Positions 8,955 to 58,263 of a stretch of 64,000 nucleotides of DNA are shown piece after piece. The DNA is taken from positions 6,569 to 70,568 of the forward strand of contig MGHG01000005.1 of the NCBI GenBank assembly GCA_001793095.1, given 5' to 3'. The translations under genes and the position numbers were made by a program. Numbering within the stretch: position 1 is the first letter of the stretch; each line of letters opens with the position of its first letter. The notes below the pieces were generated by a model, which had not been told where the DNA came from, ran no database searches, and saw nothing but the letters and a program-made list of their open reading frames with translations. Source of the DNA: Candidatus Woesebacteria bacterium RIFCSPLOWO2_01_FULL_39_23 (GTDB lineage Bacteria > Patescibacteriota > Microgenomatia > UBA8517).

Positions 8955-9308
8955 TTATATGCCAAAAAGATGAAACCATTTCTTCCAGTTTGGATCGGGA
9001 AGGGTGTCCTCTTGCTCTTCAATTTTGGGAGCGAGTTTCCTTACAACCTCGGGTGGTGGGAGAACTACCACTATCTCCCCCTCTTTCGCTAAGCCTAATT
9101 TATCCCTTATCTGCTTCTCAATATAATCGTCGCTTTTCACCTCTTCCAACTTTTTCTCAAGATCTTTTTCCTCTTCCTCTAAAGCCTTTACTTTCTCTTC
9201 TTTTTCCTTAGTCATTCTCTTGATCTCCTGCACTCGACCTATATTCTTGTAGAATGAAAGCGCCAACGAGAGTAGCAAAAAGTAAAAAAGGAATTTTTGG
9301 AATCTCAT
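8955..9308 (-). CDS. septum formation initiator (FtsB/DivIC/FtsL-like) coiled-coil membrane protein
   Basis: 117 aa; N-terminal TM, long Glu/Lys coiled coil, IEKQIRDKLGLAKEGEIVV segment typical of FtsB/DivIC. Confidence 0.5.
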   Translation of the reverse strand: MRFQKFLFYFLLLSLALSFYKNIGRVQEIKRMTKEKEEKVKALEEEEKDLEKKLEEVKSDDYIEKQIRDKLGLAKEGEIVVVLPPPEVVRKLAPKIEEQEDTLPDPNWKKWFHLFGI

Positions 9309-9532: not shown

Positions 9533-10396
9533 ATGGTACAAGATTCCTTAAAAAGTCTGCTCCCCAAATTTATTAAGAATTTGGAAGAAAAAAAACGTTC
9601 CCCCTCTACTATACTCGCATATAGAGCAGATCTGGAACAATTGGTATCATTTCTAATAGAAAAAGGTAAAGTAACCAGTGATCAAGTTAAATCTGAAGAT
9701 ATAGAAGCCTTTAGAGATTCTCTCTTAACCCAGAAATATACCCCAAAATCCGTTTCAAGGAAGCTAAACGCAATTAAAACCTTTTTCAGATGGATTATTG
9801 ACGGCAAATTTGCAACATACGATCCTTCCTCAAACGTATCCCACCCCAAAGTCGAAATTTCTAATCCCAAGTTTTTATCTCCCCTCGAATACCGCGCTTT
9901 AAGAGATGTTGTCCGGGGTGATTTGCGAGTTGCAGCCATAATTGAGCTTATTCTCCAAACAGGACTCCGAATTTCCGAAGTATCAAACCTTAAAATTGAT
10001 GATATTAAAGATAGTAACTTAAAAGTCAGAGCATATGCGACCCAGCTCGAGCGTGTAATTCCACTTAATAATCCCGCCAAACAAGCACTAGACCAGTATC
10101 TCAAAGGTAGGCCAAAAGGAGATTCCGAATATATTTTTGTAAGTAAGAATTCAAAACCTCTGGCTATAAGAAACGTTCGCGCAGCAATTGATAGATATTT
10201 CCAAAGAGCCGAAATAGCAGGCTATTCGGTAAATGATCTGAGAACAACTTTTGTCGTTCAAAACCTTAAGGCGGGTGTCGATTTAGTCTTTTTATCTAAA
10301 GTTTCCGGCCACAGACGCCTTTCAACCACCGAGCGCTACCTCGAACTTGCTCAAATAAAAGAATCCGGCAAGAAACAAACCCTCGAAGAATTATAA
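9533..10396 (+). CDS. tyrosine site-specific recombinase (XerC/XerD-like)
   Basis: 287 aa; N-terminal core-binding ILAYRADLEQLVSFL; C-terminal catalytic R...HRRLSTTERY (R-H-R-Y) signature. Confidence 0.8.
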   Translation: MVQDSLKSLLPKFIKNLEEKKRSPSTILAYRADLEQLVSFLIEKGKVTSDQVKSEDIEAFRDSLLTQKYTPKSVSRKLNAIKTFFRWIIDGKFATYDPSSNVSHPKVEISNPKFLSPLEYRALRDVVRGDLRVAAIIELILQTGLRISEVSNLKIDDIKDSNLKVRAYATQLERVIPLNNPAKQALDQYLKGRPKGDSEYIFVSKNSKPLAIRNVRAAIDRYFQRAEIAGYSVNDLRTTFVVQNLKAGVDLVFLSKVSGHRRLSTTERYLELAQIKESGKKQTLEEL

Positions 10397-10880: not shown

Positions 10881-10955
10881 TGGTGGAGCCGCTTGGAGTC
10901 GGACCAAGTACATCGATCTTATAAGGATCGCGTTCTGCCGGTGAACTACGGCTCC
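10881..10955 (-). tRNA. tRNA with UAU anticodon (putative tRNA-Ile decoding AUA), CCA encoded
   Basis: Minus strand: GGAGCCG TA GTTC ACCGGCA GAAC G CGATC CTTATAA GATCG ATGTA CTTGG TCCGACT CCAAG CGGCTCC A CCA. All stems are Watson-Crick, giving a 72 nt body plus CCA. Confidence 0.7.
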
Positions 10956-11034
10956 CCAAATTCCGCTATAAGCCAAGCTTGCATCTCACTACGTTCGATG
11001 TAAGAGTCGCGCTCTACCATTGAGCTACAAGCCC
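10956..11034 (-). other. tRNA-like 5' fragment fused upstream of tRNA(UAU): acceptor + D-arm + anticodon 5' stem/loop with UAC, no 3' half
   Basis: Minus strand GGGCTTG TA GCTC AATGGTA GAGC G CGACT CTTAC..., then no complementary anticodon 3' stem or T-arm. Same architecture as the fragment at 7206-7291. Confidence 0.4.
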
Positions 11035-11079: not shown

Positions 11080-11319
11080 TTAAAGAAACTTAATTATATC
11101 CTTGACTGCAAAGTTACGTTCCTCATTCTTTTCCAAATCTAAAGCTTTTAGAAACCATTGCTCTTTCGGATGCCACTGGGTCTTGCCATACCAAAGCTTG
11201 ACAGGTTGAACCCGCCTAATGGCTACTTCACTCTGCCAGTTGGTGTATTCGAATTTTAGGGGTATAACACGAGTCTGTTTCTTAACCATAACGTTTATAT
11301 TTACCACTAAGTAGTTCAA
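11080..11319 (-). CDS. hypothetical protein
   Basis: 79-aa ORF. Confidence 0.3.
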   Translation of the reverse strand: MNYLVVNINVMVKKQTRVIPLKFEYTNWQSEVAIRRVQPVKLWYGKTQWHPKEQWFLKALDLEKNEERNFAVKDIIKFL

Positions 11320-11351
11320 GTAGAACAGGTACTACAAGTAGAACAAGAAAA

Positions 11352-11720
11352 TTAACTTTCGATCTTGTCTTTGTAACGATATAAAAGAAATGAAACTTTA
11401 GCTCTCTGTTTATCAAATTCTTCGTACTCATCACTACTCCAGTAGTTAACCGCTTTCACCACTTCACCTTGGCTTTCAAGTTCAAGAAGGGAGCCCTCAG
11501 CTATCTCAAGATATCGAAGCTTATCTTTAATAGATCTTCTTACCCAACCCTCTGCAATTTGGCTCATTATTGAAACAGTTGCTCTTCTCATCTGAGATTT
11601 AAGTCCAAATTGCTCGCTATTCGGAAAATTCTCTGTTAACCGGTAAACTAATATTGTCAATTCCTTCGCTTCTTGCCATACAATTAAATCTCTGTACCCG
11701 GAAATATTTTTATACGTCAT
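11352..11720 (-). CDS. four-helix-bundle protein (23S rRNA intervening-sequence protein family)
   Basis: 122 aa; YRDLIVWQEAKEL...FGLKSQMRRATVSIMSQIAEG matches the conserved signature of this family. Confidence 0.7.
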   Translation of the reverse strand: MTYKNISGYRDLIVWQEAKELTILVYRLTENFPNSEQFGLKSQMRRATVSIMSQIAEGWVRRSIKDKLRYLEIAEGSLLELESQGEVVKAVNYWSSDEYEEFDKQRAKVSFLLYRYKDKIES

Positions 11721-11768
11721 ATATTATTCCTGCTCTACCTGATCTACTTGTAATACGTGTTCTACCTG

Positions 11769-14090
11769 TCAGAGCTTTGCTCTTCTTGATATTTCCGCTT
11801 CAACCAAACGCAGATCCCGTCCATAATTAAGCTTGCTCATTTCCTTTATTATGTCAGCAATTTTCGGATTATCCTTCTTCTTTTCTTTAGCAAGATCTTT
11901 AGTTACATCCATCGAAAAAGGCGGAACTGGCTCATTGTTGACCGTTGTTTTAATATAAGCATGAAACTTTTCGATATTAAGAAGATCGTCTTCTCCAAAA
12001 ACAGGGCTATACTCATGAGCCAGATAATTTGCGTCAGTTACGCCAACTCTGAAGGAAATAATAGTACCGACATTCCCGAACACCGCATTTTTCACCTCTT
12101 CTTCAACCTGACCTATAAATTGGTTGGCAACGGTTAAGTTCAGTCTGTATTTTCTTGCCTCAGAAAGAATTTGGGCAAAGTCAGGAGTAGCAAAGTTCTG
12201 GAACTCATCGACATATAAATAAAAATCGCGCCTCTGATCCTCAGGAACATCTGCCCGACTCATGGCCGCCATCAGAATCCTGGGAACCAATATGAGTCCT
12301 AAGAAACTCGAGTTTTCCTCCCCTATTTCACCTTTGGATAAATTGATGAAAAGAATTTTACCCTTATCCATTACGTCTCTGAAAGAAAATGAAGATTGGG
12401 ATTGGCCTATGATATTTCTGATCATCCTATTTGTTACAAAGCGGCCGAATTTCGAAACAATATAATCCAAAACTTCAGATTTATGGAAGTCTGCCGTTTG
12501 AGCAATTTGATCAGTCCAGTACCGTCTGATAATAGGGTCTGTTACCTTAGGCAACAGCTCCTGTACATAGCGCGCATCAGTGAGGGCTCTCATAACCTCA
12601 ACGAACGTTGCTCCCTCATCGCACATAACAGTCAACATTGCATTTCTGACAGCGTGCTCAAAGCGAGGACCGACAATACCGGTTTTATAGGGATCGAAAA
12701 GTTTATACATCATATTAATAACTGCCGTTGCTGCAAAATGCTTTTGATCTTCGGTCCTTGCCTCTAAAAGATTAAGTCCCATCGGGCGTTCGGTGTCGGC
12801 GGGATTGAAGTAAATTACGTCTTCAGCACGCTCGGGCGGAATTCTTTTTAGCAGATCCTCAATTGCATCACCGTGCGGATCCATGTAGCACAGTCCCTTC
12901 CCCTCATTAATATCCTGCATAATCATTTGCTTCTCCAGCTCGGTTTTACCGGTACCCGTCTTACCGATAATATAAATATGTCTTCTTCTGTCATCTTCCC
13001 GTATATAAACCGGCCTCCTGACGCCTCTATAGGTACTCATACCAAAATAAAGACCTTCTGACGGAATTTCCTGAGGCGCGGGTGCCGTTTTTGCGTATAC
13101 CCAATGAATATGGGGTGTTGTTATCTGTTTATTTGGGAAATGGTAAATTGTTGCAAGCTCCTCAGAATTCAAGATCGTTCGTCTATTTCCCCAAAGGTGA
13201 AACATCGGTTGATAACGGTAAATAAAATCTTCGATGAAAGCACCTTTTTGGCGGATAGTTCGACTCTTGAGATTATTTAAATCACTCGAGAGCTGGGCAA
13301 AAGTGCTGCTAATATTTGCTAAATGCGCCTTAGCTGAATTTTCATCCCTTGAAACAACAACTACCCTAACTGATGTTTCAAACCCAACCTTACTGACTTT
13401 GTTTTCGATTGCCTCTAGCGTCTTTGCAGGAACTGAAAATTTCGCTTTTTGTGGGTCCGACTCCTGTTTTTTAATATTTGATACGAAAGTTGACCCGGAT
13501 TTTTGCCATAACAAATCAACCGGTGTCAGTAGTATCTGAATTGCGGCAGACTCACCTTCACCCATTTTCGCCAATGCCGAAGTAAGCGAAGAAAGCGGAT
13601 CGGTAGCCAACTCTCTAAAAGTTTTCAAGGGGTAATAATTATCTTTCGCCAGTTGAAAAGCTTTATAAGCAACCTTCCCGTCTTCGGTAAAAATATTATA
13701 TTCCTGAACTTCGACAATATCGGCGTCTGTATAGGCTCCGTGAATCTGTTTCTCGACCAAATCCTGAAATTCTTTTGGTGTCCATATATAGAATCTGATA
13801 TCTTCTTTCTTAGCTACAATCTCAAAAGAAACATTCGGCTGGAATGAATACTTCTGCTTCCAACCTCCCTTTTTAATCGCGAAGAGGGAAGCAAACAGTT
13901 GTTCCATTGCATCGATTTTGACTTCGTTATTTTTATGGACAGCAACCTGAAGTAAAACGGAATCAACCGATCTTTCCTCCCTTCCTCTATAACGAAACTT
14001 CGTGTAAGCATAGATTGAAATCGCGGCAATTATAAAAATAAAAATCGATACAAAAAACAAAATTACAAAAATAAGATTAACGTCAATCAT
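11769..14090 (-). CDS. membrane-anchored VirD4/TraG/TraD-like type IV coupling protein ATPase (DUF87-type)
   Basis: 773 aa; N-terminal TM helix; Walker A IIGKTGTGKTE and Walker B LYVDEFQNF; TraG/TraD-like C-terminal region. Confidence 0.6.
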   Translation of the reverse strand: MIDVNLIFVILFFVSIFIFIIAAISIYAYTKFRYRGREERSVDSVLLQVAVHKNNEVKIDAMEQLFASLFAIKKGGWKQKYSFQPNVSFEIVAKKEDIRFYIWTPKEFQDLVEKQIHGAYTDADIVEVQEYNIFTEDGKVAYKAFQLAKDNYYPLKTFRELATDPLSSLTSALAKMGEGESAAIQILLTPVDLLWQKSGSTFVSNIKKQESDPQKAKFSVPAKTLEAIENKVSKVGFETSVRVVVVSRDENSAKAHLANISSTFAQLSSDLNNLKSRTIRQKGAFIEDFIYRYQPMFHLWGNRRTILNSEELATIYHFPNKQITTPHIHWVYAKTAPAPQEIPSEGLYFGMSTYRGVRRPVYIREDDRRRHIYIIGKTGTGKTELEKQMIMQDINEGKGLCYMDPHGDAIEDLLKRIPPERAEDVIYFNPADTERPMGLNLLEARTEDQKHFAATAVINMMYKLFDPYKTGIVGPRFEHAVRNAMLTVMCDEGATFVEVMRALTDARYVQELLPKVTDPIIRRYWTDQIAQTADFHKSEVLDYIVSKFGRFVTNRMIRNIIGQSQSSFSFRDVMDKGKILFINLSKGEIGEENSSFLGLILVPRILMAAMSRADVPEDQRRDFYLYVDEFQNFATPDFAQILSEARKYRLNLTVANQFIGQVEEEVKNAVFGNVGTIISFRVGVTDANYLAHEYSPVFGEDDLLNIEKFHAYIKTTVNNEPVPPFSMDVTKDLAKEKKKDNPKIADIIKEMSKLNYGRDLRLVEAEISRRAKL

Positions 14091-14424
14091 TCATGCTTCC
14101 TCCACTTTTAATCATCCGCCAGCCAAAATGAACTGCCTTTTGAATAAGTCTAATCCAAAATACTGCAAACCATGTCAAGGCATCATCGGCAGATCCTTTA
14201 GTCCAGGCAGTAAGTTGTGTTTGAGATGCCGGAATTTGAATAGTAACCTGCTGGGTTTTCGGTGTTCGAATTAAGGGTTTCCCCGAGTCATCGGTTACTT
14301 GCGCAGTAAAGTCATCACGCCGTGTTTTTACACCAAGCCCTTGTTCTACCTCCGGCGGAATCTCTGTGGGTCGCTCCGTTACTAATTCCTCCTTGGATGT
14401 AACACCCCGTTCAACATCTGCCAT
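14083..14424 (-). CDS. small membrane protein, coupled to the T4CP-like gene
   Basis: 113 aa; C-terminal hydrophobic helix (LTWFAVFWIRLIQKAVHFGW); 8-nt overlap with the upstream ATPase gene start. Confidence 0.4.
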   Translation of the reverse strand: MADVERGVTSKEELVTERPTEIPPEVEQGLGVKTRRDDFTAQVTDDSGKPLIRTPKTQQVTIQIPASQTQLTAWTKGSADDALTWFAVFWIRLIQKAVHFGWRMIKSGGSMND

Positions 14425-14496: not shown

Positions 14497-15045
14497 CTAT
14501 CTCTTTTTCACAATCCAAATTATTTCCTTTCCACCTTCTTGTAAATTAGCCCACCTAGCAAAAGTGTAAAGAGAATCTGATAAACGGTTAAGATAAGTTA
14601 ATATGGAAGGTTTTACCTTTCCAGACTCGGAATAAGCTACTACCTCCCTTTCCGCTCGTCTAGATAATGCTCTGGCAAATTGAAACAGTGATGCGGTTTT
14701 GGATCCGCCCGGGAGTATAAAATTTGTTAATGGTGGAATTTCTGTGTCAAGCAGATCTATAAGCTTCTCTAAATGAGTTGTTTGGCTTTTAGAAAATTTA
14801 AGATCGGATCCAGCAAGAATAGAGCCTATATTTAAAAGGTTGATCTGCATTCTTTCGATTTCTTTTTTCACCAGAGGCAAACCCTCACTAAAAGCGGAAA
14901 CGATTCCCAAATAACTATTCAATTCGTCAACGGCTCCGATTGCAGAAATAAGAGGCGCGGATTTTGGAAGTCTTACGGATTTCCCCTCAACTTTTCTATA
15001 TATTCCCGTCTCCCCCCGATCCCCTTTCTTTGTATAAATGGACAT
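14497..15045 (-). CDS. ATP:cob(I)alamin adenosyltransferase, PduO type
   Basis: 182 aa; N-terminal IYTKKGDRGETG signature of PduO/MMAB adenosyltransferases. Confidence 0.8.
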   Translation of the reverse strand: MSIYTKKGDRGETGIYRKVEGKSVRLPKSAPLISAIGAVDELNSYLGIVSAFSEGLPLVKKEIERMQINLLNIGSILAGSDLKFSKSQTTHLEKLIDLLDTEIPPLTNFILPGGSKTASLFQFARALSRRAEREVVAYSESGKVKPSILTYLNRLSDSLYTFARWANLQEGGKEIIWIVKKR

Positions 15046-15809: not shown

Positions 15810-17966
15810 TTAAAGTTCGCAGGTCGAATACCCGCATTTTTTACACTTAAGACATTTTCTGTCTCTAATCAGTTTACCACTACAGTTAGGACAAATATTT
15901 ACTCCGCCGGCTGGCGGATTTTTTCTTCCCCCGAATTCAAACACTTGATCGTTCTTTGTTCTATCGCGATAAACAGTCAGTCCTTTACAACCAAGCTTCC
16001 AGGCTAGCACATAAGCTTCCTGAATATCTTTAGGAGTTGCCGAAGCGGGCATATTTATCGTTTTTGTAATCGCGTTATCTGTCCACCTCTGGAAAGCTGC
16101 CTGCATTTTTATATGATCCCTCCAATTTATATCGTGAGCCACTTTGAAAATCCGCCTAATATCGGCGGGAATTTCTTGTATATTTTGGATACTCCCATGA
16201 TGATCGATAACCATTTGTATTAATGCATCCGAATATATTCCCCGCTCTTGTAGCTTCTTCACAAAAAGAGGCACCACAGTTCGAAGATGCATGCCATCAA
16301 GTACATTTTGTTCATAGGCAAGTGCAAAATAGGGTTCAATTCCAAAAGAAGTTTCGCAGATAACGGCATTTCCGGAGCTTGGAGGAAAAGTAAGGAGAGC
16401 AACATTTCTGGGTTTTTTCGCTCTTTTTGCCCATATTGAGTCTTTGACTAAAGGAAACGGACCTTTTTCTTTAGCAAGCTTGCATGAAGCTTCAAATGCT
16501 GCCTCGTACATCGTTTTTGTTACATGCTCAGCTAAGTCAAAAGCTTCCTTGGAGTCATATGGAATTCCAAGTATCGTAAGAGCTTCAGCCCATCCGACAC
16601 AGCCAATTCCTATTCTTCTGTGCGCTCTCACCGATTCAGTGACCTCCGTAACCGGAAACCATGAGGCGTCAATCACGTTATCCATTAATCTCGTGGCAAT
16701 TACCATAACGCTTGTCAATTTGTCAAAATCGAAGGTACGAGCTTCAGGATTGACAAACTTAACGAAATTAACATACCCCAAATTACATGATTCATAAGGA
16801 TACTGGGGAATCTCACCGCACACATTAGTAGCTAATATCGGACCTTTTTTGGCCAATAACGGATTCCCGAATTGCGTGCCTTTATTAATTGCTGAAAGAT
16901 TAAGTATTCCCGGATCTCCTGTTTGCCAAGCCATCGTTGCCATGAGCTCCAAAATCGAGCTTGCCTTGACAGTATTTACTACCTCGTTAGTTCTTGGGTT
17001 AACTAGTTTCCAGTCTTTGCCCTTCAATGCAGCTTGCATAAAAGCATCGGTAATACCGACCGAGATATTGGTTTTACTTAAATAGCCGTCATTTTGTTTT
17101 GCTGCAATAAAATTAAAGATATCCGCATGGTCAGCGTTGAGAACCGCCATATTGCCGGATTCATATCTGCCCTCCTGACGGAAAAGCGACGTCATCAAGT
17201 CAAACATCTCGATTATCTTAACCGGTCCTGCTGCAAGATCCGGAATACCCCCTACAACATCCCCCTCAGGTCTGACATTAGAAAAGTTGTAGCCGCATCC
17301 TCCGCCATGTTTTTTAATAAGAGTCGATTGATGGAGAATCTTAAAAATAAAATTAATATCATCTTCCACCGGCCAGACAAAACAATTCCCGAGCTGAGCG
17401 GCCTTCTTGCCTGCATTTGCCAGAGGCCTGGTTCCCGGGTGGAATTCAAAATTTATCATGACATCATAAAATTTCTTGTACCACATATCCTGATTTTTCT
17501 TACCCTTTTCAACACTTGCTAAAAATCTGGCAACTCTGTCAAACATTCCGCCGGGAGTTTCGATAATTTCTCCCTTTTCATTTCTACTGAGGTATCTTTG
17601 CTTTAATATGTATAACGTATTATAGGAAAGCCCAATATCGTCTTTTACTCCAAGAGATTCCTTATCCTGCCGGGCGTGTTTCTTATTCTCACGAAAGCGG
17701 ATAAACTCCTTGGCAGTTTTTGCGTGACCTCGTTCAATCAAGACTTTTTCTACAAGCTCGCCAATTTCAGTCGTTTTAATACTTTCACCATTCGGATATC
17801 TTATCTCTAAAGTCTCCTTTACCAATTCTCCCAACTCGAGTGCCAAGTTTTTATCATTACCGCCTACTTTTTGCGCAGCCATCCAAATACTTTCCGTGAT
17901 CTTCTCAACTGAAAACATTTCCTTCTGACCGGAAAGTTTAATTACCTTTTTTGCAGTTTGCGTCAT
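15810..17966 (-). CDS. nrdJ: ribonucleoside reductase class II (adenosylcobalamin-dependent) with N-terminal ATP-cone and C-terminal zinc ribbon
   Basis: ATP-cone region VIKLSGQKEMFSVEKI; active-site NVCGEIPQYPYESCNLG (NxCGE family motif); C-terminal CPNCSGK...CLKCKKCGYSTC. The ORF is listed to 18125, but M54 at 17966 avoids overlap with the upstream nrdJ. Confidence 0.85.
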   Translation of the reverse strand: MTQTAKKVIKLSGQKEMFSVEKITESIWMAAQKVGGNDKNLALELGELVKETLEIRYPNGESIKTTEIGELVEKVLIERGHAKTAKEFIRFRENKKHARQDKESLGVKDDIGLSYNTLYILKQRYLSRNEKGEIIETPGGMFDRVARFLASVEKGKKNQDMWYKKFYDVMINFEFHPGTRPLANAGKKAAQLGNCFVWPVEDDINFIFKILHQSTLIKKHGGGCGYNFSNVRPEGDVVGGIPDLAAGPVKIIEMFDLMTSLFRQEGRYESGNMAVLNADHADIFNFIAAKQNDGYLSKTNISVGITDAFMQAALKGKDWKLVNPRTNEVVNTVKASSILELMATMAWQTGDPGILNLSAINKGTQFGNPLLAKKGPILATNVCGEIPQYPYESCNLGYVNFVKFVNPEARTFDFDKLTSVMVIATRLMDNVIDASWFPVTEVTESVRAHRRIGIGCVGWAEALTILGIPYDSKEAFDLAEHVTKTMYEAAFEASCKLAKEKGPFPLVKDSIWAKRAKKPRNVALLTFPPSSGNAVICETSFGIEPYFALAYEQNVLDGMHLRTVVPLFVKKLQERGIYSDALIQMVIDHHGSIQNIQEIPADIRRIFKVAHDINWRDHIKMQAAFQRWTDNAITKTINMPASATPKDIQEAYVLAWKLGCKGLTVYRDRTKNDQVFEFGGRKNPPAGGVNICPNCSGKLIRDRKCLKCKKCGYSTCEL

Positions 17967-17973
17967 GATGGTA

Positions 17974-20562
17974 TTAACATTCCGAGTATCCACATGCTTG
18001 GCATTTGGAGCAGCCTTCCTCATAAACCAATGCACTTGCACCGCAGGATGGGCAGATATCTCCAACACCCTTAATATCCGCAAGGCTAAGTTGGTTTGCA
18101 GACATATTTTCTTGCACTTCTGCAACTCCCCCAGGATGAAGACTAAAGTTCGTTACCCCATTCGTGTTTATTCCTCCGTTCCCGTTTGTAACTAAGTAAC
18201 TCTTACCATCCCCCTCCGTTTTGTGATTATTGTCAATTTCATCCGGTTTTACATTTTCGTAACCCTCCCGTCCCTTGAGAAAGCCATTAATTCTGAAGCC
18301 AAAATGAAGCGAAAGTGCCATTGCGATAGCATCCGGGAGTGACAATACTTTATTAGGCCCAAAACCCACGGACCGTCTCCCTCCAATACCGGCTAGCTGG
18401 AGAGCAATCTCTTTTGCCCGATCAACCGGCCTAAGATCACTTCTAAAACGTAGTGCCGTTGATATTGTTCTGCCTAAGGCTTCCGACATTGCTGCAACAT
18501 CGCTTCCGGCTTTTCCTACGTTGACAAAAAGTTCTAAGGGTTCCTGCTTCTCGTCTTGATTTATTGTCACAAAAGCAGTTCCAACAGGCGTATTAAGCCG
18601 ATAAGTTGCACCTGTAACCTTAAATGGCCTACTAATAGTTGACTCTTTAGGTAATTCCTTCTTCTTTTTGTCATTAATTCCTAAATTAAGAACTTGAGCG
18701 GCTTTGCAGCCATCTCTGAAAACAGTTACTCCCTTACAATCCGTCTCCCAAGCCAATAGATATGCCTCTTTTATATCCGATACATTGGTTTCATTTCTCA
18801 TATTAATAGTCTTACTCACGGCATTTTCCGTATATTTCTGGAATGCTGCCTGGTGCCTGATATGCCAATCGTGGTTAATTTCGTGGGCAGTACCAAAGAC
18901 TCTCTTGACGTCATCCGGCACCCCGTCAACTTCTCTTACAACTCCATGTTCGCCGATTTTTCTTTTTAACTCATCCGTCCAAAAGCCTCTTCTTTTCGCT
19001 ACCTCTTCAAACTTTGGATTTACAAACGTCAGGGTTCTATCCAGACTTTTATCTTTAACAATATGCTGGTATGCAATTGCAAATAGGGGTTCGATGCCGC
19101 TACTCGCTCCTGCCAGTATTGAAATCGAACCTGTCGGGGCAATAGTTGTAACGGTCGAATTTCTTCGCGGTTTTCCATTTTTATAAATACTAACTCCCCA
19201 GAGCGGAAATGGCCCGCGGTCCTTTGCCAACTCGTGAGTGGCGGCAACAGACTCTGTCTCAATAACTTTCATAATTTTTTCCCCAAGCGTTAAGGCTTCT
19301 TCCGAATCATAAGGAATCCCCAACTCAACCAGTAAATCCGCCCATCCCCCAACTCCAAGACCAATACGTCTAATAGCCAAAGATGTCTGGCGAATCTCTT
19401 TCAAGGGATACGGATTCATTTCAATTACGTCATCAAGAAATCGTGTTGAGACTCTCGCAACTTCTTTCAACTTTTCCCAATCAATAGACTTTTCGCCGTT
19501 ATTATCAACTACAAACTTCTGAAGAAAAATACTACCTAAATTACATGAATCATACGGATAAAGAGGTTGCTCACCACAGGGGTTGGTTGACTCAACCGGA
19601 CCGAGTGGCGGAACCGGATTTGCTGAACCTTTATTTATCCTATCCAGAAAAATTAATCCAGGATCGCCGGTTTTCCAAGCTCCTTCGGCGATTTCATCCC
19701 AAACCTTTCGAGCAGAGAGCTTTCCGACAACTCGTAAGCTTACACCTTTGTCATCCTTTTTGGGTGCAATAAGGTCGTATTCACTATCGTTTTTGAGAGC
19801 CTCCATAAAGGCATCAGTAATTGCAACAGATATATTGAAATTGGTAATTCCTCCTTCTTCCTTACAATGAATGAATTCAAGAATATCCGGATGATCAACT
19901 CTTAATATTCCCATATTTGCCCCACGCCTTTTACCACCCTGTTTTATTTCGTTTGTCGCAGCGTCAAATATCTTCATAAAAGACACGGGGCCTGAGGCAA
20001 TTCCTCGGCTTGACCGCACTATTTCTCCATGCGGCCGTAATCGACTGAAAGCAAAACCCGTTCCCCCTCCCGTTTGGTGTATCAAAGCCTGATATTTAAT
20101 AGCGTCAAAAATACCAACTAGCGAATCTTCAACAGGAAGAACAAAACAAGCAGAATATTGTAGACCGTTACCCGTTCCCGCATTCATCAGGGTCGGAGAA
20201 TTCGGGAGAAATTCATGAGTTACCAGAAGATTGTAAAACCTGCGTGCAGTTGTTAAAACCTCACTTTTTGTTTTACCCCAACAAACCTCAGCCGATGCGA
20301 TATCCCAAGCAACCCGCCAACATAACTCTTCGGGAGTTTCGATAACTTGTCCATCCTCATTCCTGCGCAGATATCTCTCACTGAGAACCCTTAAAGACTG
20401 CTCAGTCCATTCTCCCTTGGGCAAATCGGAAGGTACATCAGGCCTTTTTCCAAGTTTTTTATGCAATTTCTCGACGAGTTCCCCGTACGTAGGAAAGTTA
20501 AGATGCTCTAAACTAAGTTCCGAGTGGCCGTTGCTTTTAATTTTTTTAATTTTTTTGGACAT
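17974..20562 (-). CDS. nrdJ: ribonucleoside reductase class II, second paralog, without ATP-cone, with long C-terminal extension
   Basis: 862 aa; TNPCGEQPLYPYDSCNLGS active-site motif; C-terminal CPSCGAS...CSKCQACGYSEC zinc ribbon; no intein-like insertion seen. Confidence 0.85.
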   Translation of the reverse strand: MSKKIKKIKSNGHSELSLEHLNFPTYGELVEKLHKKLGKRPDVPSDLPKGEWTEQSLRVLSERYLRRNEDGQVIETPEELCWRVAWDIASAEVCWGKTKSEVLTTARRFYNLLVTHEFLPNSPTLMNAGTGNGLQYSACFVLPVEDSLVGIFDAIKYQALIHQTGGGTGFAFSRLRPHGEIVRSSRGIASGPVSFMKIFDAATNEIKQGGKRRGANMGILRVDHPDILEFIHCKEEGGITNFNISVAITDAFMEALKNDSEYDLIAPKKDDKGVSLRVVGKLSARKVWDEIAEGAWKTGDPGLIFLDRINKGSANPVPPLGPVESTNPCGEQPLYPYDSCNLGSIFLQKFVVDNNGEKSIDWEKLKEVARVSTRFLDDVIEMNPYPLKEIRQTSLAIRRIGLGVGGWADLLVELGIPYDSEEALTLGEKIMKVIETESVAATHELAKDRGPFPLWGVSIYKNGKPRRNSTVTTIAPTGSISILAGASSGIEPLFAIAYQHIVKDKSLDRTLTFVNPKFEEVAKRRGFWTDELKRKIGEHGVVREVDGVPDDVKRVFGTAHEINHDWHIRHQAAFQKYTENAVSKTINMRNETNVSDIKEAYLLAWETDCKGVTVFRDGCKAAQVLNLGINDKKKKELPKESTISRPFKVTGATYRLNTPVGTAFVTINQDEKQEPLELFVNVGKAGSDVAAMSEALGRTISTALRFRSDLRPVDRAKEIALQLAGIGGRRSVGFGPNKVLSLPDAIAMALSLHFGFRINGFLKGREGYENVKPDEIDNNHKTEGDGKSYLVTNGNGGINTNGVTNFSLHPGGVAEVQENMSANQLSLADIKGVGDICPSCGASALVYEEGCSKCQACGYSEC

Positions 20563-26898: not shown

Positions 26899-27966
26899 AT
26901 GTACAAACACTCCAAAGGTTTTATTCCTCTCATCATCCTTTTAGTCATTTCATTATTTATTTCTTTTGGTATAGGTTATTATGCATACAAAAATGGACAG
27001 ACCCGCCTGCCGGACGGTGACCTGGCAAATTGGAAAACTTTTAAGGATGAGCACTATAATTTTATATTCAAATACCCTACCAATTGGACAGTCGAAATCG
27101 ATCCCCCTTCAGCCTTGCGATCCCTCGCTATTAAAGACGAAGGGAAAATAAGAGCCATCCGCATCGACACTTCAGTTAACCTATCAATGGGACTAAGTGC
27201 ACCATGCACTCCCCCCAGATGTCAACTAGAACTCATTGAAGGAAATATCGGCAAAATAGGTATCGAATGGCGGGACAACAGTGGCTTTTCAATGCAGGGT
27301 AAAGACAATCAATCCGCCATCAGTTTTACTTTAGAGAAAATTACACCAGAAACAAAGGCTTTTTTTCGCCTTATCCTCTCCACCTTCAAGTTCTTGGATC
27401 AGGCAACGAATAAACGTACCGTCGAAGTCACACGGACAGATGGCACTAAAACTATAATTGACTTGAATTTGGCAAAAAAATACCCAGACGGAAAAGTTAA
27501 TGATGATATCTCTTCCTCTTGGATAGAAAAAACAATCCCTTCTCCCGACGAATCCAAAATAGTTGTGGTAACTTCGGATGGAGGTTCGAGTGTCTACGTG
27601 GTTTTGCTTACTTCATTTGCAAACCCCACAACCTATGAGGAAATAGGACTCAACGACACCTCTTTATTAAATAATATTGTCTGGTCTGACAATAGCCGCT
27701 ATGTGACTTTAGTCTCCAGACCTGCAGATATCGGTCCTTATAGAGTCAAAGTTTGGGATACACAAGCAAATAATATTGCTTCTATCAAAATCCAGTCAGA
27801 CCTTCTCAAGGATACCTGTGCTAGTCCATCTCTTTTCAATCCAAAATGGGTAGACAACTCAACGTTACAAGCTACCTATGAAGCCTACTACTTTGTTTCG
27901 GACGAAACCTGCCGGCCTGATCCTTCGAAACCAATCCAAAAAGGCATAACCACTATAACAATATAG
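26899..27966 (+). CDS. exported protein with conserved KGF...GIGYYAYKNGQTRLPDG N-terminal anchor (family member 1)
   Basis: N-terminus MYKHSKGFIPLIILLVISLFISFGIGYYAYKNGQTRLPDG; about 45 nt are nearly identical at nucleotide level to 28060-28105. Confidence 0.45.
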   Translation: MYKHSKGFIPLIILLVISLFISFGIGYYAYKNGQTRLPDGDLANWKTFKDEHYNFIFKYPTNWTVEIDPPSALRSLAIKDEGKIRAIRIDTSVNLSMGLSAPCTPPRCQLELIEGNIGKIGIEWRDNSGFSMQGKDNQSAISFTLEKITPETKAFFRLILSTFKFLDQATNKRTVEVTRTDGTKTIIDLNLAKKYPDGKVNDDISSSWIEKTIPSPDESKIVVVTSDGGSSVYVVLLTSFANPTTYEEIGLNDTSLLNNIVWSDNSRYVTLVSRPADIGPYRVKVWDTQANNIASIKIQSDLLKDTCASPSLFNPKWVDNSTLQATYEAYYFVSDETCRPDPSKPIQKGITTITI

Positions 27967-27984: not shown

Positions 27985-28671
27985 ATGGATTTAGAGAATA
28001 AAAGTCAAAAAGGCTTTGCCCAAGTTTTGATCATAATAATCCTGGCTGTCCTTGTTGTCGGAGGAATTGGGTATTATGCATACAAAAATGGACAGACCCG
28101 CCTGCCGGACGGGCAGGTAAAAACAACTTCTCAATCATCTCCTTCCCCCACTCCTACAATAGATACCTCAAATTGGAAAACTTACTCAAGCGAAGCCGGG
28201 TGGATACTCAAATATCCGAAAAATTGGTACGTATACGATAAGGGTTATAAGTTAGGTAATAAAAATGAATATTTAAATAATTACCACACTGTATCCTTTA
28301 GCCCCAATAAATTTCCGGAATCTATCCTTGAAGGTACTGAATTTGCATATAAAGGATTATCAGTAAGTTTTGACCCGAGCAACTTGGATCTCGATAAGGT
28401 ATTAGAAAATGCAAAAAATGATAAAAGTTTTGTTAGCGGAAATAAAATCGAAGTTGCAGGTAAATCAGCAGTAAAATTGATTTACGATTCACGAAGTGAA
28501 AATAACTTACCTCCAGCATTCAGGGAACAACGGGTATTATACAAGATTAATTATTCAATGTTTAATTTTTCTTTACTTAGCATTTCTTATAACTTAAGCG
28601 ACATGCAAACTCTCGAAGATAATCCATATAATCAAATCCTCTCCACCCTTCGGTTTGACTCGGGGCTGTAG
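27985..28671 (+). CDS. exported protein with the same N-terminal anchor (family member 2)
   Basis: ...KGFAQVLIIIILAVLVVGGIGYYAYKNGQTRLPDGQ... Confidence 0.45.
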   Translation: MDLENKSQKGFAQVLIIIILAVLVVGGIGYYAYKNGQTRLPDGQVKTTSQSSPSPTPTIDTSNWKTYSSEAGWILKYPKNWYVYDKGYKLGNKNEYLNNYHTVSFSPNKFPESILEGTEFAYKGLSVSFDPSNLDLDKVLENAKNDKSFVSGNKIEVAGKSAVKLIYDSRSENNLPPAFREQRVLYKINYSMFNFSLLSISYNLSDMQTLEDNPYNQILSTLRFDSGL

Positions 28672-28990: not shown

Positions 28991-29222
28991 ACTGCCCCAA
29001 GTTAGTGGACGCGAAGTAATAAAAGTCTTGAGAAAAATAGGATTTGAAAAAGTTTCTCAAAAAGGAAGCCATATTAAACTTCAGAGACAGAAAGCAAATA
29101 CCACACAAATTATAATTGTCCCCGATCATAAAATTATAAAGAAAGGAACGCTCCGAAACGGAATTTTAAAACCTATCCCTCTTACTGTTGAAGAATTTTT
29201 AAGTTTACTCAAGAGAAAATGA
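28983..29222 (+). CDS. hicA: HicA-family mRNA interferase toxin
   Basis: 79 aa; GSHIKLQR...VPDHKIIKKGTLRNILK; 8-nt overlap with hicB. Confidence 0.65.
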   Translation: MPKLPQVSGREVIKVLRKIGFEKVSQKGSHIKLQRQKANTTQIIIVPDHKIIKKGTLRNGILKPIPLTVEEFLSLLKRK

Positions 29223-30115
29223 ACAAAAATCTAAGCCCCGTACCAAACTCTGTTCTGGTGCGTGGGTCAAACGGTTTTGTTCCTCTCATCATTCTTTTAG
29301 TCATAACCTTATTAACTTCTATTGGAATTGGGTATTATGCGTATAAAAATGGACAAATAAAATTACCTTCTCAAGAACCTACTCAAAAAAGTGAAAATTC
29401 TATAGGAATTGGATTCGGTCTGTCTGAAAGAACCCTCCCCTTTTTACGCTATCTGACAAATGCCAATGATTTTGTTGATCTCATGAACATCACTAAATCT
29501 TCTGATTTAATAACAAATGCCAACGAAAAATCAATTCAGACAGTATGCATAGCCAGATCTCTCGATGGACTAAAAGAAATCGCCGCTTTGGCGAAAGAAA
29601 AAGAGGTGATATGTAACTATCTTGGTTATAATCCGGAAGATCGTGAGGGAACTCCGGAGGAAGAATTAAACGACTTCGTCGGATCTAGCCAAAAAGCACA
29701 ACAGACTGTGCAAAGTTATGGACTAAAACTGGTTAACGGCCCCGGCTTGAAATATATAAGTAAACAGGAAGAGAATTACGCACAAGCAGCGAAGTTTACA
29801 GATATTTGGCTTATTCAAACCCAAGGTTTAACTATAGATAAAAAAACAAACAAACACGCAACTCCGGAAGAATACAACCAATCAGTAAAAAGGGTTGCAG
29901 ACATGCTTAGGAGTGGAAATCCGGAGGTTAAAATATGGGCACAAATAGTACTCACTCCGGGAGGGGTTGAAGCAGCACAATTTACGCCAGAAGAAATCGT
30001 TGCCTATATTAAGTCAGTTGAAGGAACGGTTGATGCAGTTAGAATTTATACAACAGGTACTCCCAACTTTGAAGACATTCTTCAAAAAATTATCAATCTA
30101 TTACGTCCCAGTTGA
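29219..30115 (+). CDS. exported protein with the same N-terminal anchor (family member 3)
   Basis: ...NGFVPLIILLVITLLTSIGIGYYAYKNGQIKLPSQ... Confidence 0.45.
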   Translation: MNKNLSPVPNSVLVRGSNGFVPLIILLVITLLTSIGIGYYAYKNGQIKLPSQEPTQKSENSIGIGFGLSERTLPFLRYLTNANDFVDLMNITKSSDLITNANEKSIQTVCIARSLDGLKEIAALAKEKEVICNYLGYNPEDREGTPEEELNDFVGSSQKAQQTVQSYGLKLVNGPGLKYISKQEENYAQAAKFTDIWLIQTQGLTIDKKTNKHATPEEYNQSVKRVADMLRSGNPEVKIWAQIVLTPGGVEAAQFTPEEIVAYIKSVEGTVDAVRIYTTGTPNFEDILQKIINLLRPS

Positions 30116-57414: not shown

Positions 57415-58263
57415 ATGCGCCAGAAAGGATTCATCCACGTTATTCTGCTTATATTAATTGTCTTTATCACTATGGGGGTGATGAGTTTTGTTATGTATAA
57501 CGGATCTAAGAAAGAGCTCAATCTTGAGGGAGATTCAAATTACATCTATAAAGACCAAGCAGAGAAAAAGATGAATAAAAAAGAATTTGGATGGCCAAGT
57601 AATACAGCGAAATACATAACCGCAGTTCCGGTTGATTTGACCCAGATTCAAAGCATATCTAAATACCGATCGTGTGCAGGTCACATTCGGGATGGATACG
57701 ACTTCGACCGTATTCGAGAATACGATAGCTCTATGAAACATTATTTGTACCCGATTCCTATGTATCAAGTCACAATGGATAAGGTAAAACTATTTGCTCC
57801 TTTTGACGGGAAAGTTATTCAGATTGATTACGAAAAAAATAAGGTGATCCCCGGTCGACCACATAACGGTAACGGTATTCATTTTTCAACTTTAGTTGAT
57901 CCTAATGTTAAATTTGTTTTTGGTCACCTATATTTCGCGCGAGATTTTAAAATCGGTGAGGAAGTAACAGCCGGGGAATTAATAGGCTATGCCGCTATTG
58001 GTGATAAAGGAACCGATTTTGATATCGACCTTTCAGGTATTAATAAAACAAATGATGACGTCGAAATCCTCGGTTCAGCCTTTGACCATATGACGGACAC
58101 AGTATTAGCGAAGTTCGCCAAATATGGAGTAACTTTGGAAAATATCAAGTTCAGTAAAGAGTATAGAGATGTCCACCCTTGTGGTTATTACGGAACGAAT
58201 AAAGACAGATCTGACCAATGCATTGGCAGAATAAACGAATGTTGGGTGCAATTAAAGCACTAA
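57415..58263 (+). CDS. membrane-anchored hypothetical protein (possible M23-like peptidase fold)
   Basis: 282 aa; N-terminal TM; HIRDGYD (HxxxD) present but second His motif not clear. Confidence 0.35.
   Translation: MRQKGFIHVILLILIVFITMGVMSFVMYNGSKKELNLEGDSNYIYKDQAEKKMNKKEFGWPSNTAKYITAVPVDLTQIQSISKYRSCAGHIRDGYDFDRIREYDSSMKHYLYPIPMYQVTMDKVKLFAPFDGKVIQIDYEKNKVIPGRPHNGNGIHFSTLVDPNVKFVFGHLYFARDFKIGEEVTAGELIGYAAIGDKGTDFDIDLSGINKTNDDVEILGSAFDHMTDTVLAKFAKYGVTLENIKFSKEYRDVHPCGYYGTNKDRSDQCIGRINECWVQLKH

Follow-up and report, generated by a model that had tools for sequence, protein, structure and literature searches.

The window analysed here is a 64-kb stretch (64,000 nucleotides) of the genome of RIFCSPLOWO2_01_FULL_39_23, a bacterium of the Candidatus Woesebacteria (GenBank assembly GCA_001793095.1, contig MGHG01000005.1, positions 6,569 to 70,568). 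Within it, two overlapping genes on the minus strand encode a 773-aa ATPase with a DUF8128 domain and a TrwB/VirD4-like motor (11769-14090; open reading frame (ORF) call and Pfam) and a 113-aa protein, its putative adaptor, called the partner below (14083-14424; ORF call). The two genes share 8 nt (14083-14090, ATGATTGA), and a Shine-Dalgarno sequence, GGAGGA, can be read within the end of the partner gene (14098-14103, minus strand), 7 nt from the ATG of the ATPase gene. Because the overlap is combined with a Shine-Dalgarno sequence inside the partner gene, this arrangement indicates translational coupling of the two genes, in agreement with an initial annotation made from the DNA letters. 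A scan for promoters and terminators gave counts at or below the shuffled expectation.

The ATPase is anchored in the cytoplasmic membrane through a single predicted N-terminal transmembrane (TM) helix (residues ~4-33, 13992-14081), which reached a Kyte-Doolittle value of 3.38 over residues 6-24 and appeared as helix 4-33 in the AlphaFold2 (AF2) model. The helix is followed by an N-terminal alpha/beta domain (residues 35-345, 13056-13988), assigned to Pfam DUF8128 (PF26449) and folded like the VirB4 N-terminal domain, and by a RecA-like motor of the VirB4/VirD4 class (residues 346-730, 11901-13055), all encoded on the minus strand, as are the following elements. In the Walker A motif GKTGTGKT (residues 376-383, 12942-12965), G376, T378, G379, G381 and K382 are invariant among 60 orthologues, as are Y626, V627, D628 and E629 of the Walker B motif YLYVDE (residues 624-629, 12204-12221), which in its extended form reads YLYVDEFQNF (residues 624-633). 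Between the two motifs lies an all-alpha insertion (residues ~447-575, 12366-12752; AF2 helices H447-H575), near-invariant in the alignment and the counterpart of the all-alpha domain of type IV coupling proteins (T4CPs), and the protein ends in a conserved, basic two-helix tail (residues 731-773, 11772-11900; AF2 helices 742-756 and 760-772).

Three T4CP families of Pfam matched the ATPase above their gathering scores (GA): TrwB_AAD_bind (PF10412; 41.8 bits, GA 20.5, E 8.7e-11, residues 366-710), T4SS-DNA_transf (PF02534; 31.3 bits, GA 20.1, E 1.3e-7, residues 532-665) and TraG-D_C (PF12696; 26.8 bits, GA 22, E 5.2e-6, residues 624-703). Together with the strong N-terminal TM helix, these matches bear out the earlier description of a TM-anchored VirD4/TraD-like ATPase with Walker A and B motifs. 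Among the models that the initial annotation had named for a hidden Markov model (HMM) search, T4SS-DNA_transf and TraG-D_C thus exceeded their thresholds, while DUF87 scored slightly below its gathering score and AAA_10 gave no match. None of the VirB4 models in Pfam (CagE_TrbE_VirB, AAA_10 and P-loop_TraG) matched at E<=0.01, and the NCBIfam models for TraD, VirD4-like proteins and CedD matched weakly, well under their cut-offs. The layout of PF26449 followed by PF10412 was found on the ATPase and on all 120 listed homologues, the PF26449 assignments being precomputed Pfam matches.

The AF2 model of the ATPase, with 60 orthologues in the alignment, had a pLDDT (predicted local distance difference test score) of 76.9. 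When it was searched against the PDB with Foldseek, the top match was R388 TrwK/VirB4 (E 2.6e-17, ~850 aligned columns over both domains), followed by TrwB (E ~5e-11), which aligned with the motor alone. A sequence search of the PDB, even by profile, found DotL and TrwB only and left TrwK undetected. Since the best full-length structural match is TrwK/VirB4 while sequence finds only DotL and TrwB, the ATPase is a hybrid, in which a VirB4-like domain plan is combined with a VirD4-like motor sequence. It possesses both the RecA-like nucleotide-binding domain with an inserted all-alpha domain that marks T4CPs and the N-terminal and C-terminal ATPase domain folds of VirB4. In the fold comparison, the figures were 25.5 for the VirB4 C-terminal domain (4ag5), 25.1 for DptH, 24.7 for TrwB, 23.4 for DotL, 20.8 for HerA, 19.7 for Cagbeta, 15.5 for TcpA, 15.3 for EccC and 14.7 for FtsK. 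The initial annotation had allowed that the ATPase might be a housekeeping motor of the FtsK/HerA type. The alpha, beta and gamma domain set of FtsK with its four-TM (4TM) N-terminus and an FtsK-type motor as nearest fold was not found in the ATPase, which is clearly not of FtsK type, and neither was the HAS barrel of HerA or a pairing with NurA or a defence effector.

The fold likeness to DptH, together with a PADLOC match of the motor to mad8 (E 3.3e-17), would fit an anti-phage defence ATPase of the kind found in MADS (mad8), DptH or HerA-type systems. This similarity is limited to the shared motor fold, however, the neighbouring genes gave no other PADLOC match and did not make up a MADS system, neither a patchy distribution nor a link to methyltransferase or nuclease genes was seen, and the near-universal occurrence, single-locus synteny and 75% cross-species identity of the ATPase are the opposite of what defence islands present. 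We therefore consider a defence function very improbable.

To the partner, a length-restricted iterative HMM search seeded by the 113-aa protein was applied, and it settled on 37 loci, 33 of them non-self, in every one of which the gene stood immediately upstream of the ATPase gene (gap from about -11 to +20 nt over the 33 non-self loci). Because the partner family is found directly upstream of the ATPase across loci, the two genes form a conserved two-gene module. A small same-strand gene lies directly 5' of the ATPase gene in most loci, and comparable C-terminal helices are encoded upstream of the ATPase in Dojkabacteria-like loci. A database profile search with the partner, whose phyletic distribution the initial annotation had proposed to examine, returned 171 relatives, all named 'hypothetical', all without Pfam domains and all from Patescibacteria (Woesebacteria, Collierbacteria and others). 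The family evolves fast, with 26-46% identity to the window protein in the loci of the closest other species (L005-L010). Its alignment begins with an acidic, variable N-terminus, continues with the motifs PxEV..GV and (I/V)xLP(L/I)T, and closes with an amphipathic, W-rich helix of the form W..WLAEW..R..K (ALTWFAVFWIRLIQKAVHFGW) and a basic tail. This Trp-rich and basic (Arg/Lys-rich) C-terminal helix is also the most hydrophobic segment of the window protein, and its top 19-residue hydropathy of 1.12 is below the usual threshold of 1.6, so that the partner, called a membrane protein in the initial annotation, is not clearly one. The partner had no match in Pfam, NCBIfam or PADLOC, and with a sub-threshold hydropathy and no HMM match, a VirB3-like or membrane protein was rejected as its identity. 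It looks like a largely disordered adaptor, which would dock by short motifs.

For the neighbourhood analysis, 598 loci encoding relatives of the ATPase were confirmed in a genome scan and 80 of them were fetched; the window proteins were mapped onto these loci and all their ORFs were clustered. A recurrent order, NrdR–RNR (ribonucleotide reductase)–PduO–small gene–ATPase–tRNA-Ile(UAU)–Xer (convergent)–DivIC–tRNA-Met, was seen in Woese-, Levy-, Gottesman-, Davies-, Collier- and Shapirobacteria, all within Microgenomatia. The window conforms to it, with a gene for a PduO-type cobalamin adenosyltransferase as the upstream neighbour of the partner gene (14497-15045, minus strand), a tRNA-Ile(UAU) gene detected by ARAGORN and Rfam (10881-10955, minus strand), which in relatives is the next feature downstream of the ATPase gene, a gene for a Xer-family tyrosine recombinase convergent to the ATPase gene (9533-10396, plus strand; Pfam Phage_integrase and SAM-like domains) and one for a DivIC/FtsB-like septum protein (8955-9308, minus strand; Pfam DivIC, E 3e-16). 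Xer was present in 37 of 78 loci, on the opposite strand and at a median of 0.8 kb downstream of the ATPase gene, DivIC in 30 loci and PduO in 19. In 43 of 75 loci the tRNA-Ile(UAU), a tRNA whose anticodon is rare in bacteria, was located no more than 2 kb downstream, and frequently just 5-100 nt past the ATPase stop codon. With 72-75% identity in L005-L010, the ATPase ranked above Xer (61-68%), PduO (43-49%), DivIC (29-49%) and the partner, and is therefore the most constrained gene of the neighbourhood. Other genes for cell-wall and division functions (PBP2, Ddl and SpoIID) recurred near the ATPase loci. Several loci with typical Microgenomatia synteny (L005, L006, L011-L013, L050 and L077) carry public titles such as 'uncultured Gammaproteobacteria', 'Pseudomonadales', 'Bathyarchaeia', 'Limisphaerales' and 'Methylomirabilota'; these contigs are probably mislabelled or mis-binned metagenome-assembled genomes (MAGs).

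GC content, GC3 (GC at third codon positions) and codon usage of the four genes singled out by the initial annotation (ATPase, partner, IVS-family gene and 79-aa ORF) equalled those of the flanks, and the comparison that it had suggested thus gave no foreign signature. From the conserved gene order, the high identity of the ATPase and the native composition it follows that the ATPase and its partner are chromosomal core and not an island. The possibility, raised with the initial annotation, of a conserved chromosomal core gene lacking partner genes is accordingly half right: the ATPase is core, but its partner gene is conserved along with it. The window recombinase matched the NCBIfam models XerD, XerC and XerA at E ~1e-45; it is Xer-like and conserved, not a phage integrase. 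Being convergent, Xer is not co-transcribed with the ATPase, and it is a conserved synteny partner. Neither the window nor the 80 related loci contained a relaxase gene or a gene of a VirB4-containing type IV secretion system (T4SS). The earlier statement that this is not a complete conjugation module stands. Clustering of the ATPase with VirB3, VirB6, VirB8 or pilin genes was not found either, its neighbours being housekeeping genes, and in the neighbourhoods of divergent lineages (SmpB, SpoIID and a bitopic protein of 750-920 aa) no T4SS or competence genes were recognised.

Between the ATPase gene and the tRNA, the window holds an insert of another kind. It comprises an IVS/Avd-like four-helix-bundle gene (122 aa, 11352-11720, minus strand) and a WYL-like ORF (79 aa, 11080-11319, minus strand; ORF call). 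The IVS protein matched Pfam 23S_rRNA_IVP (PF05635) with 117.6 bits (GA 33.8, E 3.6e-34), TIGR02436 with 108 bits (cut-off 24) and the PHROG family of Avd proteins of diversity-generating retroelements (E 1e-7). The 79-aa ORF matched Pfam WYL weakly (E 1.4e-5) and phrog_3715 at E 6.5e-24, and tblastn found it in ~390 phage records. The 813-bp stretch between ATPase and tRNA had no DNA match outside the source species; the IVS gene occurred in 3 other loci only, at different positions, and the 79-aa ORF, like a 96-aa ORF, was confined to the source species. For these reasons the IVS and WYL genes were rejected as partners of the ATPase, and while the initial annotation had recognised both genes correctly, it had wrongly counted them as part of the module.

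A tRNA-like fragment next to the intact tRNA (10974-11034, minus strand) scored 21.5 bits with the Rfam tRNA model, below the gathering score of 29. It did not match the window's own tRNA-Ile(UAU), and it was 88-93% identical over 28-34 nt to the 5' halves of tRNA-Ile(UAU) genes from other lineages. Since it resembles those and not the intact copy, it is the 5' half left over from an earlier tRNA-Ile(UAU) copy, with the break at the anticodon loop, and it lies outside the module. The tRNA and the tRNA fragment noted initially are thus both present, the latter at a sub-threshold score, but do not form one unit with the four genes, of which only those for the 113-aa and 773-aa proteins are conserved together with tRNA-Ile. 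Loci L027 and L019 also hold tandem tRNA-Ile-like pieces. In other lineages the same intergenic spot is occupied by genes for a sugar dehydrogenase, an MFS (major facilitator superfamily) transporter, ATP-grasp proteins, Ddl, PBP2 or SpoIID, and this variation in cargo between lineages suggests a possible hot spot for insertions.

A tRNA, a broken tRNA copy and a tyrosine recombinase within 2 kb, accompanied by an IVS/Avd-like gene and a WYL-like ORF with phage-family relatives, are what a decayed conjugative or integrative element at a tRNA might leave behind, with the coupling protein as its sole survivor, and the initial annotation had considered such a remnant. The synteny of ATPase, partner, tRNA-Ile and Xer over many Microgenomatia lineages leads us to reject this explanation for the ATPase, which moreover tops the conservation of its neighbourhood, has native composition and lies near a recombinase that is Xer-like and conserved. 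Only the 0.8-kb IVS and WYL insert (11080-11720) is species-specific; with the broken tRNA-Ile copy it looks like the sole mobile-element-like debris at the locus. That the ATPase itself derives from an integrated element is hardly credible.

The rest of the window is housekeeping in character, comprising two class II RNRs with NrdR and PduO, two PBP1-type proteins, glycolysis genes, transketolase, a TyrRS/TrpRS-type tRNA synthetase and FtsH. Among its ORFs of at least 280 aa there was no VirB4, relaxase or pilus ATPase, which agrees with the absence of relaxase, VirB4 and pilus genes noted initially. NrdR, the class II RNRs and PduO make up a nucleotide-supply cluster upstream of the partner gene. 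The two RNR genes are in tandem (15810-20562; ORFs of 771 and 862 aa, overlapping by ~150 nt in the longest-ORF reading), with NrdR before and the PduO adenosyltransferase after them; in the related contig L004 the larger RNR gene is split and yields products of 448 aa and 423 aa. Elsewhere in the window, three tandem ORFs (26899-27966, 27985-28671 and 29219-30115) and a fourth (57415-58263) have a common pilin-like N-terminus, KGF(I/V/A)..(I/L)ILLV...GIGYYAYKNGQ, which is like a class III (prepilin) signal but without the Glu at +5. One of the four contains a PsbP_2 domain, and together they could represent a surface protein family, either anchored or secreted.

The ATPase belongs to a very large family. 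A word-index search gave more than 6,700 homologues, the best 120 of which were 75-88% identical to the window protein, and the homologues were named as Woesebacteria, Microgenomates or Patescibacteria. In an exhaustive HMMER search of 50%-identity cluster representatives, 23,092 passed at E<=1e-3, of which 6,039 also passed at E<=1e-30. Three loci from Candidate Phyla Radiation (CPR) lineages outside Microgenomatia encode two ancient full-length paralogues, adjacent or a few genes apart (L075 1128-6163, L080 7926-16554 and L081 7935-15272). Type A is 41-43% and type B, which has a C-terminal extension, 36-37% identical to the window protein; in L080 and L081 the B copy follows a conserved gene of 346 aa. 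Since A and B are encoded close together, it is a possibility that these paralogues form a hetero-oligomeric or two-motor machine. Anaerolineae (Chloroflexota) have proteins of ~1,500 aa in which N-terminal TPR (tetratricopeptide) repeats are joined to a motor ~50% identical to that of CPR (P0180, P0199 and P0391, the last at L086 849-5369), in a context that is not that of a T4SS. Such motor identity between CPR and Anaerolineae is unusually high across phyla.

Full-length homologues, with both the N-terminal domain and the motor, were also present in large Bacillus phages (phage G, SPO1-like phages and CP-51) and in Geobacillus phage D6E. Phage G gp156 matched at E 6e-47 over residues 84-724, and phrog_5156 at E 7e-102. 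In CampHawk (L088 93497-98205) and D6E (L089 22587-26731) the homologue comes right after a ParM-like partition gene, a linkage that was thus observed in two unrelated phage groups. In SPO1-like phages a nicking replication initiator is a further neighbour. CampHawk has, in addition, three hydrophobic ORFs of 48-73 aa directly upstream of the homologue, which is itself followed directly by a 'replication initiation by nicking' gene. The phage gene set may be a DNA-partition or transfer module.

In their paper on T4SSs in Patescibacteria, Quinonero-Coronel et al. (2025) found VirB4 in 2,417 of 3,035 genomes and VirD4-type T4CP homologues in 2,918 of the 3,035 (96%; 5,713 proteins), only 148 of these close to virB4, and wrote that an exaptation of the orphan T4CP homologues 'cannot be ruled out' (PMC12102498). 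The Table S3 entries for five Woesebacteria assemblies list, in each, one t4cp1 match far from virB4, and a separate bona fide VirB4 is found near oriC in Patescibacteria (PMC12102498). In S. epibionticum, Wang et al. (2023) reported an essential T4SS without a recognisable coupling protein (PMC10633639). Two proteins of that organism, both flagged as core and Patescibacteria-enriched, are relevant here (PMC10633639). SEML1_0293 (921 aa) has PF10412 at 402-719 and thus the layout of the window ATPase; by transposon sequencing (Tn-seq) it is non-essential, yet its normalised reads fell from 5,817 to 2,940 and 1,372 (PMC10633639 and its Tables S1 and S2). SEML1_0142 (1,019 aa), with a 'TraM recognition domain', is essential by Tn-seq, and so is SEML1_0141, a 139-aa gene 12 nt upstream of it (PMC10633639). 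Judging from annotation and domain layout, SEML1_0142 is likely a paralogue of the window ATPase family. The T4SS paper treats only a non-essential t4cp homologue of S. epibionticum, and the essential SEML1_0142 has apparently escaped notice as a possible coupling protein. Our literature searches for DUF8128 or TrwB_AAD_bind in a CPR context found nothing.

The neighbours of the ATPase and its phage relatives would also suit a chromosome-handling motor at division, FtsK/SpoIIIE- or partition-like, that clears or segregates septal DNA with Xer and DivIC. Convergent Xer and DivIC recur at the frequencies given above, PBP2, Ddl and SpoIID are found nearby, RNR and NrdR lie upstream, the phage homologues stand beside ParM-like genes in two unrelated groups, and the SPO1-like copies have been annotated as FtsK/SpoIIIE (PMC3853049). 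In addition, the Table S3 entries for five Woesebacteria assemblies contain no t4cp2-type (TcpA/FtsK-like) match (PMC12102498). Against such a role, the ATPase is without the alpha and gamma domains and the 4TM domain of FtsK, tblastn with the E. coli FtsK motor misses the family altogether, and Xer is on the opposite strand. A complete and essential FtsK with 4TM, alpha, beta and gamma domains (SEML1_0096), moreover, coexists with both family members in S. epibionticum (PMC10633639), and the literature accordingly has FtsK side by side with the family in Saccharimonadia. In the CPR loci, the E. coli motor query found no FtsK, over ~1.2 Mb of sequence only. Taken together, a division motor is unlikely.

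A DNA-uptake motor, which would draw DNA into the cytoplasm by way of ComEC or a Ced-like importer and so supply nucleotides to cells unable to synthesise them, is suggested by the reliance of Patescibacteria on scavenged nucleotides and by the position of the ATPase gene, which follows the deoxynucleotide cluster NrdR-RNR-PduO and has the same orientation. The VirB4-like architecture resembles that of archaeal DNA importers, and the P-loop region has a weak NCBIfam CedD match (E 4.5e-6). That match, however, covers residues 357-429 only, and no ComEC, ComEA or pilus gene was linked to the ATPase in any examined locus. Competence of S. epibionticum is ComEC-dependent and dispensable for growth, whereas the likely paralogue SEML1_0142 is essential. 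An uptake function is therefore quite improbable in our view.

We favour, with a probability of roughly 0.55, the reading that the 113-aa/773-aa pair represents, in Woesebacteria, a core module that Patescibacteria inherit vertically, and in which the ATPase feeds a polymer to a membrane channel. By analogy with its family, the ATPase would be a ring-shaped (hexameric) ATP-driven translocase, and its N-terminal domain may be used for docking, like that of VirB4. As an adaptor or regulator, the partner would use its LP(L)T motif and its amphipathic C-terminal helix to bind the ATPase, comparable to CagZ, TraM and IcmSW with classical coupling proteins. At the inner face of the membrane the ATPase would engage a polymer, most likely DNA and alternatively unfolded protein, and pass it to a channel, which might be the dispersed, relaxase-less T4SS of Patescibacteria where present, or another partner. 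A link to DNA is supported by the full-length phage homologues beside ParM-like partition genes and, in SPO1-like phages, a nicking initiator. The stripped-down DNA-translocation device proposed in the initial annotation is likewise possible, although its framing as a remnant or reduced form of conjugation is largely wrong.

Several points weigh against this assignment. Every NCBIfam T4CP equivalog or subfamily model scored far under its cut-off (57 vs 366 bits for SXT TraD), and the classical N-terminal membrane domain of T4CPs with two TM helices is missing, its place being taken by one helix and a 310-aa VirB4-like domain. Between the partner and VirB3 or the known T4CP adaptors, no similarity could be detected. 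No T4SS gene lies within the 64-kb window, and the source genome GCA_001793095.1, a scaffold-level MAG, is VirB4-negative in Table S1 (PMC12102498). The prevalence of 96% for T4CP against 80% for VirB4 does not prove independence from a T4SS, because per-gene detection of ~80% for a universal two-copy versus a universal one-copy family gives the same figures. The Xer, DivIC and RNR surroundings could reflect nothing more than a gene order passed on by descent, with no bearing on function, and substrate, channel, oligomeric state and all function are deduced from fold and context.

When compared with known systems, the ATPase shares with T4CPs (VirD4, TrwB, TraD and DotL) the P-loop motor with Walker A and B, the all-alpha insertion, the membrane anchor and a small adjoining partner (as in Cagbeta–CagZ and TraD–TraM), and T4CPs are the only families and solved structures that can be detected from its sequence. 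It differs from them in having one TM helix instead of two and an extra VirB4-like domain of ~310 aa before the motor, and in belonging to the chromosomal core, without relaxase or virB4 genes in its vicinity. To VirB4 (TrwK, TraC and CagE) it is tied by the two-domain plan and the best full-length Foldseek match, and the small upstream gene followed by an ATPase gene recalls virB3-virB4. Unlike VirB4, it matches no VirB4 sequence model, its partner has neither a TM hairpin nor a PrgI or VirB3 match, and Patescibacteria own a separate VirB4. The phage proteins (SPO1-like, phage G and D6E; phrog_5156) are homologous across the N-terminal domain and the motor but have no TM helix of their own, are linked to ParM-like and nicking-initiator genes and are only 21-25% identical. 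FtsK/SpoIIIE proteins belong, like the ATPase, to the FtsK-HerA superfamily, are membrane anchored and share the proximity to Xer and a division gene, whereas the domain differences and the coexistence with a canonical FtsK described above set them apart. The orphan T4CP homologues of Patescibacteria (PMC12102498) are the same protein class and probably the same family; we see no essential difference, and the window locus is one more member. The window ATPase family is thus a known but uncharacterised core family of Patescibacteria and a variant of the coupling-protein kind.

While the existence of the orphan T4CP homologues has been published, that paper (PMC12102498) does not mention a VirB4-like domain at the N-terminus, the small conserved partner, the synteny with tRNA-Ile, Xer and DivIC or the phage homologues, and the essential likely paralogue SEML1_0142, placed in the family by annotation and layout, is a further addition to the literature. 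A bolder idea, which we think rather unlikely, is that the DUF8128-motor family is neither coupling protein nor VirB4 but a third ancient branch, with a VirB4 N-terminal domain on a VirD4-like motor, acting as a T4SS-independent, membrane-bound machine for DNA partition or translocation. If this were true, its counterpart in large Bacillus phages would be ParM-like filaments, and in Patescibacteria the division neighbourhood of Xer and DivIC, where it would represent a near-universal, partly essential and previously unrecognised chromosome-handling motor of CPR.

Patescibacteria account for a large share of bacterial diversity and have tiny genomes with few dispensable genes. The ATPase family is present in ~96% of their genomes and is currently filed as 'orphan coupling protein'. 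Its VirB4-type N-terminal domain, its own adaptor and its phage relatives beside partition genes lead to testable functional hypotheses, and its architecture is relevant to the divergence of VirB4 and VirD4 from their common ancestor. The locus also illustrates that a VirD4-like gene with a tRNA and a tyrosine recombinase beside it need not come from an integrated element but can belong to the conserved core of the chromosome.

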